Positions 3,323 to 33,970 of a stretch of 64,000 nucleotides of DNA are shown here, piece after piece. Every line of letters starts with the position of its first letter. The stretch's first letter is position 1. Made by a program: the position numbers and the translations under genes. Under the pieces are notes generated by a model, which ran no database searches, was not told the DNA's origin, and saw nothing but the letters and a program-made list of their open reading frames with translations. Origin of the DNA: a bacterium (GTDB taxonomy: Bacteria; Patescibacteriota; Minisyncoccia; Moranbacterales; GWC2-37-73); the NCBI GenBank assembly GCA_003251635.1, contig QKEW01000013.1, forward strand, positions 2,023 to 66,022. The letters run 5' to 3'.

Positions 3323-5659
3323 ATGGGCAGGAGAAAAAAAGAAGATATTGAAAAAGAAAAACAACAAGAAGATCGCAAAGCCACAAGTCATGGTGACGTA
3401 AAAAGAGGTGCGGTGGCGGTTTTCCTTTTTGCCTTGTCAATCCTTTTTATTTTGGGGTTTATCGGGCAGGCTGGGTTATTGGGGCAATATTTGGATATTT
3501 TTGCCGGATCGCTTTTTGGTTGGGGAAAATGGCTTTCGCCTCTGGTTTTATCGGCAATCGGAATTGTTTTACTTTTTCGCAAGGAAGCTTTTTTCTATGT
3601 CTCTAAAATAATCGGTCTAGTGATATTATTTTTGAGTTTTTTGGGTTTTTTCCATCTCTATTTTGAGGTGGCTGATTTTTCTCAATTGGTTCACGAGGGA
3701 AGTGGCGGCGGTTATTTGGGTTACGGCATTGCCCTTGTTTTAATTAAAATTACCGGAAGAATTGGAGGAACGGTAATTTTAGCCGCTTTGATGATTTGTG
3801 GTGGGATATTTGCTTTCAATTTTTCCTTAGTGACTTTTTTACGCAAAATCTTTAAAAGAAAAATTAGGGAGATGCAGGAAGATGACGAGGGTGAGGAAGG
3901 TGAAAGTGAGCAAGAGTCTTCCGAAGAGGATGAAGATTTGGGAAATCCGTTAATAGAAAATGATTCCCAAGGTGAAGAGGGTGAAGAAAGTGATGATCAG
4001 GAAACCAAGGAGGATGAAGAGTCTGACTATGAGGTTCCGCCGGTAAAAAAATCAATCATCCAAAAATTATTGGGAGGTAAATCAGCAACTCGTGAAAAGG
4101 CCCAATGGCAATTTCCGCCATTAGATTTATTAGAGTCCTCCACTGACAAAGCCCTGGGTGGTGACACTAAAAAGAATGCCAAAATTATCCAAGATACGCT
4201 TAGACATTTTGGAATTGAGGTTGAAATCGGGGAAATTAAAACGGGACCAACCGTTACTCAATATAGTTTTCGGCCGGCAGTTGGGGTGAAATTAACTCGA
4301 ATAACAGCCCTGAATAATGATCTAGCGCTAGCTTTAGCTGCTCATCCAATCAGAATTGAAGCACCGATTCCAGGAAAATCCTTGATTGGAATCGAGGTGC
4401 CAAATAAATCAATTGCAATGGTAAGGATGCGAGAGCTTTTTGAAACCGCTGATTTTGCCAATCGTTCAACAAACTTATTGCTGGCACTGGGCAAGGACGT
4501 TAGTGGTAATTATGTTTACGCTGATCTGAAAAAAATGCCCCACTTGATGATTGCCGGTTCAACTAATAGTGGAAAAAGCGTTTGTGTTAATTCGATTATT
4601 TTATCCATGATTTATCAGAATTCGCCGGATGACTTGAAGTTAATTTTGGTTGATCCCAAAAGAGTGGAACTTTCTTTGTATAATGGAATTCCTCATCTTC
4701 TTTCGGATGTGATTGTGGAAAACGGAAAGGTTTTAAGTGCTTTGAAATGGGCGATTGGGGAAATGGAGCGACGATATAAAAAACTGCAACTAACTGGATC
4801 TCGGGATATAAATTCCTACAATAAAAAAGCGGAAAATGGCGAAACTGTTTCAGTGACTGATCCGGAAACCAATGAAACAATTGAAGAAGAGATTGAAAAA
4901 ATACCCTACATTGTGATTGTTATTGATGAGCTAGCTGATCTGATGGCGACTCATGGCAAAGAAGTTGAAGGTGCTATCATTAGATTAGCTCAAATGGCCC
5001 GAGCAGTGGGAATTCATTTGATTGTTAGTACTCAAAAGCCGGTCGTGACTGTTATTACCGGTTTGATTAAATCTAATATCCCGACCCGTATCGCTTTCAA
5101 GGTTCCTTCTCTAACTGACTCGCGAACCATGTTGGATAGTGGCGGAGCTGAAAAGCTTTTAGGAAACGGAGACATGCTTTTTCTTTCGGTTTCAGCCACT
5201 GGCCTAAAAAGAATCCAAGGAGTTTTTATTTCCGAAGAGGAAGTTAAGCGGGTAGTTGATTTTATCAGGGATCAAAAAATGATAACCGAAGAAGAATTGG
5301 ATGAAAATATAACCGGTCCGAATAGCGGTGAACAACAAGAATTAAATTTGCCCGAGGATCAAAAATTAGATTTTGGACAAATGGAATTCGAATCATCAGA
5401 TGAAGCTGAAGATGAGCTTTTTGAGGAAGCGAAAAAGATAGTTATTCAGGCTAAAAAAGCTTCAACTTCCTTTCTACAGCGAAGGTTGAGAATTGGTTAT
5501 TCTCGAGCTGCTCGCCTGGTGGATATGTTGGAGGATCGGGGAATTGTTGGTCCGGCGGACGGTGCTAAGGCGCGGGAAGTTTTGATTGACGGGGATGAGA
5601 AAATTAATTATCAAAATGATGCGGATGATCAATTTCAGCGGGATAAGTGGCAAATGTGA
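3323..5659 (+). CDS. ftsK: DNA translocase FtsK/SpoIIIE
   Basis: N-terminal TM helices and an acidic linker. Walker A GSTNSGKS, Walker B VIVIDELADL, C-terminal gamma winged-helix (RIGYSRAARLVDMLE). Confidence 0.9.
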   Translation: MGRRKKEDIEKEKQQEDRKATSHGDVKRGAVAVFLFALSILFILGFIGQAGLLGQYLDIFAGSLFGWGKWLSPLVLSAIGIVLLFRKEAFFYVSKIIGLVILFLSFLGFFHLYFEVADFSQLVHEGSGGGYLGYGIALVLIKITGRIGGTVILAALMICGGIFAFNFSLVTFLRKIFKRKIREMQEDDEGEEGESEQESSEEDEDLGNPLIENDSQGEEGEESDDQETKEDEESDYEVPPVKKSIIQKLLGGKSATREKAQWQFPPLDLLESSTDKALGGDTKKNAKIIQDTLRHFGIEVEIGEIKTGPTVTQYSFRPAVGVKLTRITALNNDLALALAAHPIRIEAPIPGKSLIGIEVPNKSIAMVRMRELFETADFANRSTNLLLALGKDVSGNYVYADLKKMPHLMIAGSTNSGKSVCVNSIILSMIYQNSPDDLKLILVDPKRVELSLYNGIPHLLSDVIVENGKVLSALKWAIGEMERRYKKLQLTGSRDINSYNKKAENGETVSVTDPETNETIEEEIEKIPYIVIVIDELADLMATHGKEVEGAIIRLAQMARAVGIHLIVSTQKPVVTVITGLIKSNIPTRIAFKVPSLTDSRTMLDSGGAEKLLGNGDMLFLSVSATGLKRIQGVFISEEEVKRVVDFIRDQKMITEEELDENITGPNSGEQQELNLPEDQKLDFGQMEFESSDEAEDELFEEAKKIVIQAKKASTSFLQRRLRIGYSRAARLVDMLEDRGIVGPADGAKAREVLIDGDEKINYQNDADDQFQRDKWQM

Positions 5660-5737
5660 AATTAACCCATGATTTGAATCGCAATTTTTCACATAATAAA
5701 CGGTTTTGAATAAACTGAGAAGAATAAATATCTGGTT

Positions 5738-25313: not shown

Positions 25314-25371
25314 TTTTGGATAATTGACAGTTTTAGAAAAAGCTGTAAAATAGGTAGCGTGTGTTATATAT

Positions 25372-25446
<75 letters not shown>

Positions 25447-25541
25447 AAGCTAACCTACACCTTATAATCTGCAACTAGCAACATTCGTTGTCAGTGGTTA
25501 ATTGTAAGCTGTTAGTCAAGTTGCCAGGGTAGCTCAGCTTG

Positions 25542-25649
25542 CCCCGTTGCACTTTATGGGCCAGAGTAGCTCAGTTGGTTAGAGCACAGGACTCATAAGC
25601 CTGGGGTCGTGAGTTCGAATCTCACCTCTGGTACTAAAGTGCAACGGGG
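25542..25649. repeat. Perfect 15-bp inverted repeats (ccccgttgcacttta / taaagtgcaacgggg) that flank the inner tRNA exactly. TTG direct repeats lie at both outer junctions
   Basis: Exact reverse-complement arms at 25542-25556 and 25635-25649. Confidence 0.85.
25560..25633 (+). tRNA. tRNA with CAU anticodon (elongator Met, or Ile2 if lysidinylated)
   Basis: Cloverleaf with acceptor gccagag/ctctggt, D-loop agttggtta, anticodon loop CUCAUAA, T-loop ttcgaat. Confidence 0.85.
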
Positions 25650-25809
25650 TTGAATTAGAGCACAGGACTTCCGCCAAAGGCGGACAGGCATAAGCCTGGG
25701 GTCGTGAGTTCGAATCTCACTTCTGGCACTAAAGTGCAATGGTATTGATTTGGATTTTGGAATTGGTCTGTTGAAAAAAAGCTTTTTAAAAAAAATAAGT
25801 TGAATATTT

Positions 25810-25886
25810 GGGGGCGTAGCTCAGTTGGTTAGAGCGTCTGCCTGTCACGCAGAAGGTCGAGGGTTCGAGCCCCTTCGTCCCCGCCA
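25810..25886 (+). tRNA. tRNA-Asp (GUC) with encoded CCA
   Basis: Anticodon loop cuGUCac, and close similarity to bacterial tRNA-Asp. Confidence 0.9.
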
Positions 25887-25895
25887 ATAGAATAA

Positions 25896-25942
25896 AGACC
25901 TGAGGGTCTTTTGCAAAAAGCATGTCCAAGGACATGCTTTTT
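25896..25942 (+). terminator. two tandem intrinsic terminators after the tRNA cluster
   Basis: agacc-tgag-ggtct-tttt and agcatgtcc-aag-ggacatgct-ttttt. Confidence 0.6.
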
Positions 25943-26047
25943 GCTTGAAAATAATCGGCAACTAGTTTTTTATAAGAAAATATTCTTGCAAAAATACTTA
26001 TTTTTAGCTATAATAAGGGAAGTGGGAATATTAAAAAGAAGCATTTT

Positions 26048-26422
26048 ATGGCTCCAAAGCTTTATTTTTGGATTTTGCGTTTCGCGTTAATTCTAGGGTT
26101 GGGGACTTGGATTTGGGTTTTGTTTAATCTTGATCCAGAAAATTCCGGATTAATTGTTTGGATCTTGTTTTATGGAGCATTTTTTGTTTTTTTGGGCGGT
26201 TTTTTTATGAGTTTTTTTACCTGGCTGAATCGGGATTTGCAAGGTGAGCAATATTCAAAAGAATCTTTGGTCTATGGTGCGCGTCAAGGTTTATTGCTGT
26301 CTTTTTTGATTGTTGCCTTGCTTTTTTTTCAACAAAAAGAAATTTTACTTTGGTGGGATGGGCTTTTGCTGGTAGCTGGGATTTTCTTGGTTGAATTATA
26401 TTTTCTTTCACGCAGAAAATAG
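26048..26422 (+). CDS. hypothetical small membrane protein (four TM segments)
   Basis: Hydrophobic ORF immediately upstream of gyrB. Confidence 0.5.
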   Translation: MAPKLYFWILRFALILGLGTWIWVLFNLDPENSGLIVWILFYGAFFVFLGGFFMSFFTWLNRDLQGEQYSKESLVYGARQGLLLSFLIVALLFFQQKEILLWWDGLLLVAGIFLVELYFLSRRK

Positions 26423-30267: not shown

Positions 30268-30714
30268 GGATTTACGTTTGAAAAAAGTGATGCTTTCGGG
30301 CAGTGAAAATGAGTGCTAAAGTTTATTTTCAATCATTTTGAAAAACACTAGAAAAAAACAAAAAAAATCAAGCGGGTGAAATTGGGGTCATTTTGACTCT
30401 TAGTTGTCTCCGCTGAAAAAGCGGTTTTTTTGTTGCTTTAAAAAATGGTGCGAAAACAATTTCCAAAAAGCGTTTCGTATGTAATACGAACTTTGTAGAA
30501 TATGTTTCCGCATCAATCACTGAACTTTCAGTGATCGGTCACTTGAAAATTAAATAGAGTCTTTTTATGCGCGTGTAATTTTTCTCTTCTGTTTGGCGGA
30601 AAAAGAGAGGGTTGGGCGCAAAAGCATAATAAGTCTGAAATAGGTCAAAAAACAACACCGAAGAAAATTTGCAGTTAATCGTGATTGTTAACTGCTAACC
30701 GTTAAAAAATGAAA

Positions 30715-33772
<3,058 letters not shown>

Positions 33773-33859
33773 TTCTAATTTTTACGGTTAGTGGTTAAGA
33801 ATTACGATTTTTTGGAGGTTTTGTTTTTTGTTACTATTTCTTTTGTGTTAGATTGCATT

Positions 33860-33970
33860 GTCTTGGTGGCTTTTGCGGAGGGGGTACACCTCTTTCCATC
33901 TCGAACAGAGCAGTTAAGCCCTTTAGCGCCGATGGTACCTGTTTTCAGGGAGAGTAGGCCGTCGCCAAGA
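33860..33970 (+). rRNA. rrf: 5S ribosomal RNA
   Basis: Helix I tcttggtggc/gtcgccaaga. Conserved CCGAAC..AGTTAAGC..GCGCCGATGGTA..GAGAGTAGG segments. Confidence 0.85.

Follow-up and report, generated by a model that had tools for sequence, protein, structure and literature searches.

A putative tRNA-carrying insertion cassette nested within the D-loop of a second tRNA(CAU) gene in Candidatus Moranbacteria

Results

The window analysed here is a 64-kb stretch of a Candidatus Moranbacteria (candidate phyla radiation) genome (GCA_003251635.1, contig QKEW01000013.1), and it carries on its + strand an array of tRNA genes, ordered fMet, Met, Asp, that is common to the window and its Moranbacteria relatives. 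The first gene of the array (25372..25446) is an initiator-type tRNA(CAU) with acceptor strands AGCGGGG...CCCCGCA and an A1-A72 mismatch (Rfam, 58.5 bits; also called by ARAGORN), while the last gene (25810..25886) is a tRNA-Asp(GTC) (Rfam, 71.2 bits; ARAGORN) that has a 20-nt D-arm, GTAGCTCAGTTGGTTAGAGC, in common with the intact tRNA(CAU) lying between them. A sigma-70-like promoter at 25324..25351 (TTGACA, 16 nt, TAAAAT; 11 of 12 matches) is the sole promoter-like site on the + strand ahead of the array, and no promoter-like site was found on that strand within the array, so that fMet, the nested pair described below and Asp are probably co-transcribed. The repeat and hairpin search also identified a perfect 15-bp hairpin 3' of tRNA-Asp (25913..25944, + strand), which is likely to mark the end of the transcription unit as a predicted terminator. 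No transposase, integrase or homing-endonuclease gene lies in or adjoining the array of the window, and seven proteins scanned near the locus are unrelated to splicing endonuclease (EndA) or ligase. The downstream ORF at 26048-26422 was considered as a nuclease and rejected, being a small membrane protein. The label "elongator-type" given below to a tRNA(CAU) spans tRNA-Met or tRNA-Ile2, and the name tRNA-Met should be read accordingly.

The middle position of the array is occupied by two genes rather than one. A 108-bp unit (25542-25649), consisting of an arm, a tRNA(CAU) gene and a second arm, lies within the D-loop of a near-identical outer tRNA(CAU) gene, with all pieces on the + strand. 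The 5' piece of the outer gene (25523..25541) comprises the acceptor 5' strand GCCAGGG, TA, the D-stem 5' strand GCTC, AG and the junction CTTG, and its first part, GCCAGGGTAGCTCAG (25523-25537), exactly reproduces the 5' end that relatives have in their uninterrupted gene. The left arm of the cassette, CCCCGTTGCACTTTA (25542..25556), is followed by TGG and by the inner, intact elongator-type tRNA(CAU) (Rfam tRNA, 68.3 bits), delimited by ARAGORN at 25560..25634 and by an earlier, sequence-only reading of this DNA at 25560-25633. After the C at 25634 comes the right arm, TAAAGTGCAACGGGG (25635..25649), which doubles as the 3' trailer of the inner tRNA and, 78 nt away from the left arm, is complementary to it at 15 of 15 positions. 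The outer gene resumes with a middle piece (25650..25669) made up of TTGAATTA (the aberrant D-loop remainder without GG), GAGC as the 3' strand of the D-stem, A, and the 5' strand of the anticodon stem as far as U33; it is then interrupted again, and ends in a 3' piece (25689..25729; nhmmer E = 1e-9) with the CAT anticodon, the anticodon stem 3' strand, the variable loop, the T-arm, the acceptor 3' strand TTCTGGC, A and C. The acceptor halves of the outer gene pair, including two G-U pairs, and CTAAAGTGCAA trails both the inner and the outer copy. The two genes are 93% identical, and a direct repeat between the copies extends over 66 nt (89% identity) and reaches beyond the right arm. When the 231-nt region 25515-25745 was folded, the minimum free energy structure (-97.5 kcal/mol, z = -5.3) was a nested cloverleaf.

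A decayed third arm copy, TAAAGTGCAATGG (25730..25742, + strand; match region 25730-25744), lies 3' of the outer gene and is complementary to the left arm at 12 of 13 positions, suggesting that the outer gene itself may once have been a cassette. With up to three mismatches allowed, the arm has 6 matches in the window, against a mean of 1.44 in 100 shuffles, none of which reached 6; the exact matches are the arm pair itself, and the decayed copy is the third match. Beyond this third copy, the search for other copies of the 15-bp repeat gave neither a dispersed family nor a further cassette within the 64-kb window, which holds one cassette in total.

The inner gene agrees with the consensus of 37 aligned functional homologues at all 39 positions where their conservation is 97% or higher, and it is 97% identical to the plain gene of locus L052; judged by its sequence, it is the working copy. 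By contrast, the outer gene carries lesions beyond the cassette. A 19-nt second insert, TCCGCCAAAGGCGGACAGG (25670..25688, + strand), made of the mini-hairpin TCCGCC-AAA-GGCGGA and the tail CAGG, separates U33 from C34. The outer D-loop is without the G18-G19 doublet and retains about 5 extra nucleotides after arm removal, and position 72 is C, where T is found in at least 97% of the 37 aligned functional homologues (75-nt genes). ARAGORN detects the outer gene only after in silico removal of both inserts, and its intron-aware call there is 'tRNA-Gly with intron', a miscall. The sequence-only reading had correctly described an intact tRNA(CAU) between perfect 15-bp arms in the D-loop of a second tRNA(CAU), together with the G-U-containing acceptor pairing, the trinucleotide TTG at both cassette junctions and the common 3' trailer, and it had overlooked the second insert, the altered D-loop, C72 and the 66-nt repeat. 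Another genome (L115, 3197-3215) carries the 19-mer of the second insert with one mismatch, placed in the D-loop of an incomplete fMet copy. The mini-hairpin of this insert was rejected as a diagnostic motif, given that TCCGCC..GGCGGA also occurs in terminator stems and in a coding palindrome of the relatives' gatA, and a search across the window found no dispersed hairpin family.

Comparison with related loci revealed the same architecture, an arm, a tRNA-Met gene and an arm inside another tRNA-Met gene, at seven distinct loci with eight nestings: the window, L120, L056 (two nestings), L138, L065, L009 and L032, with one locus nested three deep. Separate assemblies gave identical sequences for L009, L094 and L095, and likewise for L032 and L125. 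The cassette measures 106-108 nt in 8 of 9 single (un-nested) cassettes, and it sits either in the D-loop or at anticodon position 35/36 (L065, L009, L032 and L056). All eight nestings are co-oriented, and the inserts of the arrays all fall in D-, anticodon- or T-loops or at stem-loop borders. In L065, L120 and L056 the inner gene is of a tRNA lineage other than that of the outer gene. A GCCGGCG-type cassette occupies the D-loop in L120, whereas in L032 the outer gene, an orthologue, has it in the anticodon loop; the two loci are 78% identical over 4 kb. In L056 a GCCGGCG-type cassette has itself been invaded by a GCCAGGG-type cassette. One cassette type is found at differing sites and one site with differing cassettes. 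An uninterrupted outer gene in relatives, combined with unexpressed halves here and a third intact CAU tRNA elsewhere, had been named beforehand as a sign of a simple pseudogene. Most relatives, including the closest (L003, L004, L083, L084 and L086), do have a single uninterrupted GCCAGGG-start gene, that is, an empty site, and nested cassettes occupy six loci besides the window. The earlier argument that only two intact CAU tRNAs are visible proved uninformative, since the window covers 64 kb and un-nested relatives carry the same two CAU genes here.

All outer copies are lesioned beyond the nesting itself, from one conserved-position substitution up to the loss of whole arms, whereas the inner genes have no such lesion. 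The outer copies of L009, L032, L138 and L056 level 1 are plainly dead, with arms or acceptor strands missing, while those of the window, L120 and L056 level 2 are nearly intact. Each disrupted tRNA copy in the arrays, whatever the tRNA, adjoins an intact copy. The tiny tRNA-carrying element with terminal inverted repeats that the sequence-only reading had offered as one possibility is hence favoured by the comparison, with six other Moranbacteria loci, hosts that are tRNA-Met genes of a different lineage, two loop positions, up to three levels of nesting and damage in every outer copy.

The arms are homologous and covary. Across 18 family members, 83.7% of cells pair, compared with 57.8% after shuffling (0 of 500 shuffles reach the observed value); double-change cells number 77, where shuffles give about 30, and a shift of the partner by 1-3 columns lowers pairing to 41-52%. 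Arm pairs comprise 4 G-U and 9 A-C against 121 Watson-Crick pairs. This scarcity of G-U was considered as a sign of selection at the DNA level and was dropped, as tRNA stems likewise are without one-sided changes in a comparison that rests on six sequences, L023 and L018 being left out. Arm preservation is highest with the least-decayed outer gene, whereas loci with a ruined or missing outer gene (L032, L023 and L018) have degraded arms, a pattern that fits arms that were perfect at the start and decayed later. About 55 of 64 functional genes have no arm helix. The window arms resemble those of L023 (11/15, no gaps) and the T-loop hairpin of L032, and homologous arms are shared by species in which identity of the flanking protein is as low as about 40-57%. 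Intergenic DNA that holds no tRNA is also bounded by arms of this family (up to 14 identical nucleotides), and in the nusG-rplK spacer an arm-bounded element is present in some relatives and absent in others. The 18 members include one filled-versus-empty intergenic site beside the many empty tRNA sites. The comparison establishes a multi-species cassette family with covarying arms, two loop positions, several combinations of type and site, and decay of the outer copies.

Homologous D-loop insertions read CTTG|...|TGAA (L120 and L056) or CTTG|...|TGAG (L138), so the window's flanking TTG, previously likened to a 3-bp target duplication, does not recur there; comparison across cassettes gave no consistent target-site duplication, and most members show none. 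TTGA flanks two intergenic members (L103 and L031), and TTCA or TGAA often adjoins the CCCC end of the arms. The junction tetranucleotides (CTTG...TGAA and TTCA...CGAG) are more conserved than the arms themselves. In L010, L067, L028, L115, L056, L031 and L089, the broken tRNA copy is separated from the intact one by GIY-YIG or LAGLIDADG genes; L031 also contains an Asp/Met chimera tRNA, and a 16-nt repeat after fMet in L032 and L120 is a scar of the tRNA-targeting integrative type. Neither an IS-sized element with these arms nor an autonomous transposase element was found in 1.1 Mb of related loci. Rfam returned tRNA and rRNA only, and assigned neither the arms nor the intergenic arm-bounded elements to an intron or any other family. 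A scan of viral contigs for CCCCNCACCAN{75,100}TGGTGNGGGG gave 9 matches, none with a tRNA, which were judged to be chance; six were in contigs of 58-64% G+C and the rest in contigs of 44-45%.

Discussion

We consider that 25542-25649 is probably (with a probability of roughly 0.6) a DNA-level, MITE-like, non-autonomous cassette that replaces the resident gene it disrupts, and that the outer gene of the window would accordingly be a disrupted relic beginning to decay. Its cargo would be a complete elongator-type tRNA(CAU) gene and its target an older copy of the same gene, in the D-loop part, with exposed tRNA loops as the likely site of entry. As the cassette supplies a working copy of the gene that it interrupts, insertion would be free of cost to the cell, the cassette would compensate for the disrupted gene and could not be lost thereafter, and successive rounds of insertion would produce genes nested like Russian dolls. 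The array would be transcribed from the promoter upstream of fMet, with RNase P and a 3' endonuclease releasing the inner tRNA and leaving the outer pieces as by-products. Insertion might be carried out by a single-strand transposase that recognises hairpins, by a site-specific recombinase, or through gene conversion set off by the homing endonucleases that arrays of relatives encode. Several observations count against such an element. Neither a transposase, integrase or homing-endonuclease gene at the window's array nor an IS-sized element with these arms in 1.1 Mb of relatives was found, the window has a single cassette, target-site duplication is not consistent, and the interior of the structure is covered by one assembly. 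Three outer copies are nearly intact; the confinement of inserts to loops and their co-orientation would also be expected if the outer genes must fold as RNA; the 66-nt direct repeat past the right arm is not predicted by clean cut-and-paste of a 108-bp unit; and junction motifs that outlast the arms are not explained by simple neutral decay after insertion.

The nested order might instead have arisen in place, without any mobile element, by tandem duplication of a tRNA with its trailer followed by error-prone or template-switching repair of a break, possibly made by a homing endonuclease, that duplicated the trailer in inverted orientation. On this view, the similar structures in relatives would be due to vertical inheritance, together with recombination among paralogous tRNA genes sharing D-arm and T-arm sequences. 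Such an origin agrees with the 93% identity of the two window genes and their trailer-containing direct repeat, with a right arm that is itself the tRNA trailer and recurs, decayed, as a third copy behind the outer gene, with the D-arm shared by tRNA-Asp and tRNA-Met and the existence of Asp/Met chimeras, and with the endonuclease genes between broken and intact copies; the conserved junction tetranucleotides further suggest a single origin per insertion class. However, local duplication cannot yield inner and outer genes of different lineages, and the same cassette type at differing positions in the related L032 and L120, the constant cassette length, the homology of arms across distant species (including the likeness of the window arms to those of L023 and L032) and the missing endonuclease gene in the window's array all speak against it, so that we regard an in-place origin as possible but rather unlikely. 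An artefact of assembly, in which repeated tRNA k-mers threaded near-identical copies into a false nested order, is scarcely credible. Two Logan contigs (SRR7216773) do break inside the repeats, one stopping at 25428 and the other, L002, beginning at 25691, and the interior of the structure is left uncovered by a second assembly. L002 nonetheless verifies the outer-specific 3' end and trailer from 25691 on, and its start at a shared 32-mer fits two left contexts in the reads. Moreover, a de Bruijn mis-join would not generate a perfect 15-bp inverted repeat or unique junctions, and the six other loci, from unrelated studies, show the same architecture with different sequences, two of them identically in two or three separate assemblies.

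The remaining alternative holds that the outer gene is functional. Its 15-bp helix would clamp the two halves while RNase P and RNase Z processing, or RNase III cleavage of the helix, frees them, and the halves would be ligated (for example by RtcB) or used as a two-piece tRNA, one transcript giving two tRNAs. The predicted fold, in which the helix and inner cloverleaf are enclosed by the acceptor stem and D-stem of the outer gene, is in keeping with this, as are the covarying arms, the uniform orientation and loop positions, the pairing stems of the nearly intact outer copies (window, L120 and L056 level 2), the probable transcription of the outer halves in an array that has no internal promoter, and the tolerance of Patescibacteria for tRNA introns of another kind (PMC13011429). 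Read from sequence, however, none of the junction types contains a bulge-helix-bulge (two 3-nt bulges around a 4-bp intron-exon helix). The geometry is an asymmetric internal loop, measuring about 6 x 8 nt for the window D-loop and 4 x 7 nt for the anticodon class. Both arms are intronic, and the CCCC that opens the intron pairs with the opposite arm and is unable to pair with the first bases of exon 2. Nor was a group I or II core found; for group I, Rfam gave none in the window at gathering thresholds and none at E <= 0.1 in L056, L120, L103, L145 and L150. The 19-nt insert is preceded by U33 and ends in G, which matches the splice-site rule of group I introns, whereas the D-loop insert does not end in G; with no core present, the match is probably a coincidence. 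A functional outer tRNA would in addition require precise removal of that 19-nt insert and tolerance of the missing G18-G19 and of C72 in place of T72. In no case was the interrupted gene the needed copy, an intact one being always present and the outer copies further lesioned to the point of being dead at four nestings, while most functional genes do without the helix, the arms have decayed around functional inner genes (L032 and L023) and arms also bound non-tRNA DNA. Taken together, these findings make a functional outer gene very improbable, and the D-loop intron or split tRNA that the sequence-only reading had placed beside the element is not supported, the covariance-model search for an intron having given tRNA and rRNA matches only.

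The cassette interpretation that we prefer invites comparison with MITEs, MICs and REPINs. Like these, the cassette is short and non-autonomous, has inverted repeats able to form a long hairpin with conserved termini and inner bases that vary yet stay complementary, and occurs with related arms around different contents and with presence or absence at an intergenic site. Its differences are a complete tRNA gene as content, the homologous tRNA gene itself as target, and a very low copy number (one in the window). Target duplication is not consistent, and the related loci gave neither a cognate transposase nor a full-length element. To our knowledge no MITE or MIC has a tRNA as passenger, and literature searches found none. 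REP/REPIN-RAYT systems have a conserved tetranucleotide next to a hairpin-forming repeat, a RAYT gene and a high copy number; here TTCA or TGAA often stands beside the CCCC end, and copy number is low. Like the tRNA-targeting integrative elements, the cassette would compensate for insertion into a tRNA gene with its own sequence, and a direct repeat of the tRNA 3' part (66 nt, 89% here) is found at the insert. Such tyrosine-integrase elements reportedly target tRNA genes and carry a replacement of the displaced segment, as Williams is said to have described in 2002. They are kilobases long and integrase-encoding, cross over in the anticodon loop, T-loop or 3' end, and restore the gene by fusion of old and new halves. 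The window cassette, by contrast, brings a whole new gene in about 108 bp, has inverted repeats, and has no integrase near the array. Free-standing homing endonucleases accompanied by partial duplication of the host gene are known from the tRNA cluster of phage T4 (SegB) and, as GIY-YIG and LAGLIDADG types, from fungal mitochondrial genes, in AT-rich genomes with GC-rich hairpins like those examined here. The endonuclease genes between broken and intact copies of the same tRNA in relatives are similarly placed, although none is found in the window's array, the nested cassette is too small for one, and an intact inner gene would keep the target site of the gene that it replaced.

Disrupted tRNA genes of archaea (BHB introns at non-canonical positions, split tRNAs in Nanoarchaeum, transposed introns in Thermoproteales and the disruption model for Caldiarchaeum tRNA-Thr) are interrupted in loops including the D-loop, as here, and have halves joined by GC-rich complementary sequences; for Caldiarchaeum, the proposal is that a mobile element divided the gene, with a 5' fragment staying behind (PMC3293823). 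The present case differs in its bacterial host, in junctions that show no bulge-helix-bulge, in an insert that amounts to a complete tRNA, and in interrupted copies that are redundant, not essential, and undergoing decay. The tRNA introns described in 2026 in Patescibacteria (PMC13011429) come from the same phylum, have their insertion point at 35/36 in common with the anticodon-loop cassettes, and likewise occur in genes that escape standard tRNA finders. By contrast, the window inserts are 19 and 112 nt long with no intron core, have a tRNA-Met-type host and contain a tRNA, and that study makes no mention of nested genes, inverted repeats or tRNA-Met.

If the cassette interpretation is correct, a selfish element enters an essential tRNA gene while bearing a fresh copy of that gene, which makes it harmless on insertion and impossible to lose afterwards, and the nested relics would form a time-ordered record of successive invasions. 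If the outer tRNAs were functional instead, they would represent a new bacterial intervening sequence and a new route of RNA processing in bacteria, with protein-dependent tRNA splicing or fragmentation and one tRNA stored in another. Standard tRNA finders give the inner gene only and intron-aware modes can miscall the outer one, so that caution is advisable with tRNA gene counts in candidate phyla radiation genomes and with reports of 'missing' or 'intron-containing' tRNAs there. In Moranbacteria the fMet-Met-Asp array is a hot spot in which homing endonuclease genes, hairpin inserts and partial tRNA copies come together, much as in fungal mitochondrial genomes.

Organization of the nested locus and of the tRNA array

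Re-reading the sequence confirmed the arrangement claimed by the sequence-only reading, that is, a complete tRNA(CAU) gene bounded by inverted repeats inside a second tRNA(CAU) gene. The 5' fragment of the outer gene (GCCAGGGTAGCTCAG, 25523-25537) is followed by CTTG, a left arm (CCCCGTTGCACTTTA, 25542-25556), TGG, the inner gene (25560-25633; 68.3 bits in Rfam), a single C, a right arm that is the exact complement of the left one (25635-25649), and the remainder of the outer gene (to 25729). ARAGORN and the Rfam covariance models recovered only three tRNAs in the 64 kb: an initiator-type CAU tRNA (25372-25446, 58.5 bits), the inner CAU tRNA, and tRNA-Asp (25810-25886, 71.2 bits). Searching for further copies of the arm gave six matches with at most 3 mismatches in the window, two of them exact and forming the arm pair. 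Given a mean of 1.44 matches in 100 shuffles, none of which reached six, the arm pair is not due to chance. A third match is a decayed copy directly 3' of the outer gene (25730-25744), and a direct repeat between inner and outer copies (66 nt, 89%) extends beyond the right arm. The outer gene could itself be an older copy of this cassette (arm, tRNA gene and complementary arm; 25542-25649, 108 bp).

The flanking genes are bacterial (ligA, gatA, gyrB, and a 23S-5S pair downstream), and homologues of the 181-aa protein encoded directly upstream are named Candidatus Moranbacteria (candidate phyla radiation, Patescibacteria). The 23S (3069 nt) and 5S genes occupy 30710-33970, with no 16S gene upstream within the window; compared with the bacterial model, the 23S gene is slightly expanded in places, such as around 31010-31030 and 31306-31321. 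GC skew is positive over the entire 64 kb.

Loci of related Moranbacteria, denoted by L numbers, were fetched with the 181-aa protein (80 from species-representative genomes and 80 from metagenomes). Their usual array comprises fMet, Met and Asp genes, in that order and on either strand, with a single uninterrupted elongator-type CAU gene, labelled Met here although it may encode tRNA-Met or tRNA-Ile2. In many relatives this uninterrupted gene begins with exactly GCCAGGGTAGCTCAG, and comparison of the orthologous locus showed an empty site in the closest ones (L003, L004, L083, L084 and L086). Array orientation relative to the 181-aa gene varies across genomes, both being seen. Almost all elongator-type CAU tRNAs of Moranbacteria (window 25560-25634; homologues in L003-L162) have a G1-U72 wobble and most an A31-G39 or A31-C39 mismatch; the initiator tRNA has A1-A72.

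Recurrence of nesting and covariation of the arms

An arm-bounded tRNA-Met gene within another tRNA-Met gene was found at six further loci, extending the earlier observation to relatives. The insertions fall into a D-loop class, placed as in the window and made up of L120, L138 and one nesting in L056 (their junctions being CAG-C(C)TTG/arm...arm/TGA(A/G)), and an anticodon-loop class at 35/36 in L065, L009, L032 and the other L056 nesting (junctions TTCA/arm...arm/CGAG/TAAG). L056 (5839-6180) holds a triple nest of tRNA(CAU) genes in Russian-doll fashion: a wrecked GGCAGGG-type gene (level 1) carries in its anticodon loop a GCCGGCG-type gene with its own arms (level 2), which carries in its D-loop an intact GCCAGGG-type gene with different arms (level 3). 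All eight nestings are co-oriented.

Measured between outer arm ends, 8 of 9 single (un-nested) tRNA cassettes are 106-108 nt long. The arms are related, starting with (C/T)CCC and then usually CAC(C)A; their inner parts vary among loci with complementarity kept, and conservation is higher in the 4-nt junction motifs than in the arms. Across 18 arm-family members aligned without gaps, pairing reached 83.7% over 16 pairs versus 57.8% in shuffles (0 of 500 as high), with 77 double-change cells versus about 30, and sliding the arm partner lowered pairing to 41-52%. G-U pairs are rare in the arms, but the tRNA stems of these sequences likewise lack one-sided changes, so that selection could act on the arms as DNA or as RNA. 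Comparably strong leader-trailer helices directly beside the gene are confined to elongator-type CAU genes; about 9-10 of 64 distinct genes have one, and 7-8 of these are nested.

Outer genes as damaged copies

The window's outer gene has a second lesion that the sequence-only reading overlooked, a 19-nt insert (TCCGCCAAAGGCGGACAGG, 25670-25688) between U33 and C34. Its D-loop is without G18-G19 and retains about 5 surplus bases after arm removal, and position 72 is C. Among 37 aligned functional homologues, 39 positions are conserved in at least 97% of genes, including T72, which gives the conserved G1-U72 pair; the inner gene deviates at none of them. ARAGORN finds the outer gene only after in-silico deletion of both inserts, and with the D-loop insert alone deleted its intron mode miscalls the gene as tRNA-Gly with an intron. 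The 19-nt unit, a hairpin TCC(G/T)CCAAAGGCGGA plus CAGG, is found again, 1 mismatch apart, in a partial fMet copy (L115, 3197-3215), there in the D-loop as against the Met anticodon loop in the window, and because of this recurrence the insert is itself a copied unit.

Every outer copy is damaged beyond the nesting itself. The D-stem strand is mutated in L120, the end of a GIY-YIG ORF overwrites the D-arm in L065, the 5' half is heavily mutated in L009, two more hairpin inserts accompany loss of the 3' acceptor strand in L032, and entire arms are missing in L138 and L056 level 1. The window's outer gene and L056 level 2 show the least damage. Arm quality follows outer-gene quality, with perfect or near-perfect arms in a nearly intact outer gene and degraded arms where that gene is wrecked or lost (L032, L023, L018); this pattern fits arms that would have been perfect when inserted and drifted later. 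Wherever fMet, Met or Asp has a broken copy in these arrays, an intact one of that tRNA lies next to it. In L140 (3314-3349) the array's elongator-type gene is cut to GGCAGGG joined directly to variable loop, T-arm and acceptor 3' strand, with the D and anticodon arms deleted; this genome must keep a functional copy elsewhere.

Inserts in partial tRNA copies, including mini-hairpins such as TCCGCC-N-GGCGGA, are all confined to D-, anticodon- or T-loops or their borders. This placement suggests that insertion targets particular structures (a single strand in folded form, or stems serving as recombinase sites), or else that the outer RNA has some need to fold.

Origin of the cassette

Of the two readings offered from sequence alone, a D-loop intron or a tRNA-carrying element with inverted repeats, the data favor the element. 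In L065, L120 and L056 the inner gene comes from a different tRNA lineage than the outer one (64-84% identity). The GCCGGCG-type cassette, with arms CCCC(A/C)(A/C)CAC(C/G)CCAAAAT-like, sits in the outer D-loop in L120, whereas in L032 the orthologous outer gene carries it in the anticodon loop; these two loci are 78% identical across 4 kb. It is also the middle doll in L056, itself invaded by a GCCAGGG-type cassette. One cassette thus occupies different sites, and one site can hold different cassettes. Combined with the decayed outer copies, lineage mixing and shifting sites lead us to propose, with a probability of about 0.62, that a small inverted-repeat cassette carrying tRNA(CAU) was inserted at the DNA level into the D-loop region of a resident copy, which is now a decaying relic with its function supplied by the cassette. 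An origin in place by duplication and repair, with which the extended direct repeat would be compatible, is clearly less probable given the same lineage mixing and shifting sites. Neither a transposase, integrase nor endonuclease was found near the window's array, nor an autonomous element with these arms in 1.1 Mb of related loci.

That the outer tRNA is functional, spliced or in two pieces, is improbable. The 231-nt region is predicted to fold as a cloverleaf within a helix within a second acceptor and D-stem (-97.5 kcal/mol, z = -5.3). However, an intron of the BHB kind did not hold up, there being no bulge-helix-bulge at the junctions: the arms, both of them intronic, pair with one another, so that an asymmetric internal loop remains beside the D-stem or anticodon stem. 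Rfam detected neither a group I nor a group II core in the window or relatives, and every outer gene is damaged. As to misassembly, the two Logan contigs that cover the window's locus break off at 25428 and resume at 25691, confirming the outer 3' end and trailer only. Yet the L009 structure is identical across three assemblies (L009, L094, L095) and that of L032 in an independent 50-kb contig (L125), so misassembly is not a credible general explanation and is very improbable here.

The proposed inserted cassette is a variant of known MITE- or MIC-like elements, and equally of known tRNA-gene-targeting insertions with compensating sequence. As far as we found within the literature searched, it is without described precedent in bacteria: nested or disrupted tRNA genes came up in full-text searches only from archaea and algae, apart from unrelated cases, and PMC13011429 makes no mention of nested genes, inverted repeats or tRNA-Met.

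Related elements and tRNA debris

Same-family arms (up to 14 bases identical to L065's arm) also bound stretches of 30-100 nt of AT-rich non-tRNA DNA between genes, further evidence of a cassette that moves or is delivered. A presence-absence difference in the nusG-rplK spacer adds to this: L150 (1335-1445), L045 and L079 have an arm-bounded element of about 110 nt there (arms CCCCGC.../...GCGGGG) that L159, L069, L081 and L058 lack. Rfam has no family for this element, which could be either a mobile element or a small RNA, and conserved sequence containing tRNA-like words (GCTCATAA..GTAGCTAC..GCTCATAG) lies 3' of it. In L145 the entire module of 181-aa gene and tRNA array lies between two near-identical hairpin elements (2368-2429 and 3486-3548; CCCCCACACCAA.../...TTGGTGTGGGGG) with TTCA and TTAA as their flanks.

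Moranbacteria arrays are a dumping ground for selfish DNA. GIY-YIG genes lie between hairpin-bearing partial and intact copies of fMet (L010, 5603-5927; L067, 4286-4586; L130) or Asp (L028, 1869-2186; L115, 4165-4502), LAGLIDADG genes between Met and Asp (L056, L031, L089, L114), and a 225-aa HTH protein between fMet and Met (L057, L019, L043, L115), with GIY-YIG and LAGLIDADG_3 confirmed by Pfam. These endonucleases are plausible drivers of gene conversion; the window has none. Initiator-gene 5' fragments with a GC-rich hairpin (often TCCGCC-N2-4-GGCGGA) in place of the D-loop occur upstream of the intact gene in L003/L085, L025, L122, L017, L089, L009, L115 and L031, where a 46-nt hairpin-fragment unit is repeated three times in tandem (5597-5734). 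A second copy of the initiator gene's last 16-20 nt (ATCCCTCTCCCGCAAC) lies downstream in L032 (5651-5770) and L120, which share this flank, with an insert of about 100 nt in between, and L122 has after fMet a 3' partial copy with two hairpins in the T-loop; these duplicated 3' ends look like scars of integration at the 3' part of the tRNA. L031 (6046-6116) encodes a chimera with an Asp-type 5' acceptor on a Met-type body and 3' end, and in L086, which shares its contig with L004, the tRNA-Asp 3' end follows on from a fused CGAGTAAGCCCGG junction fragment about 500 nt downstream of the array. Met and Asp genes have an identical 20-nt D-arm in common, which may promote such recombination.
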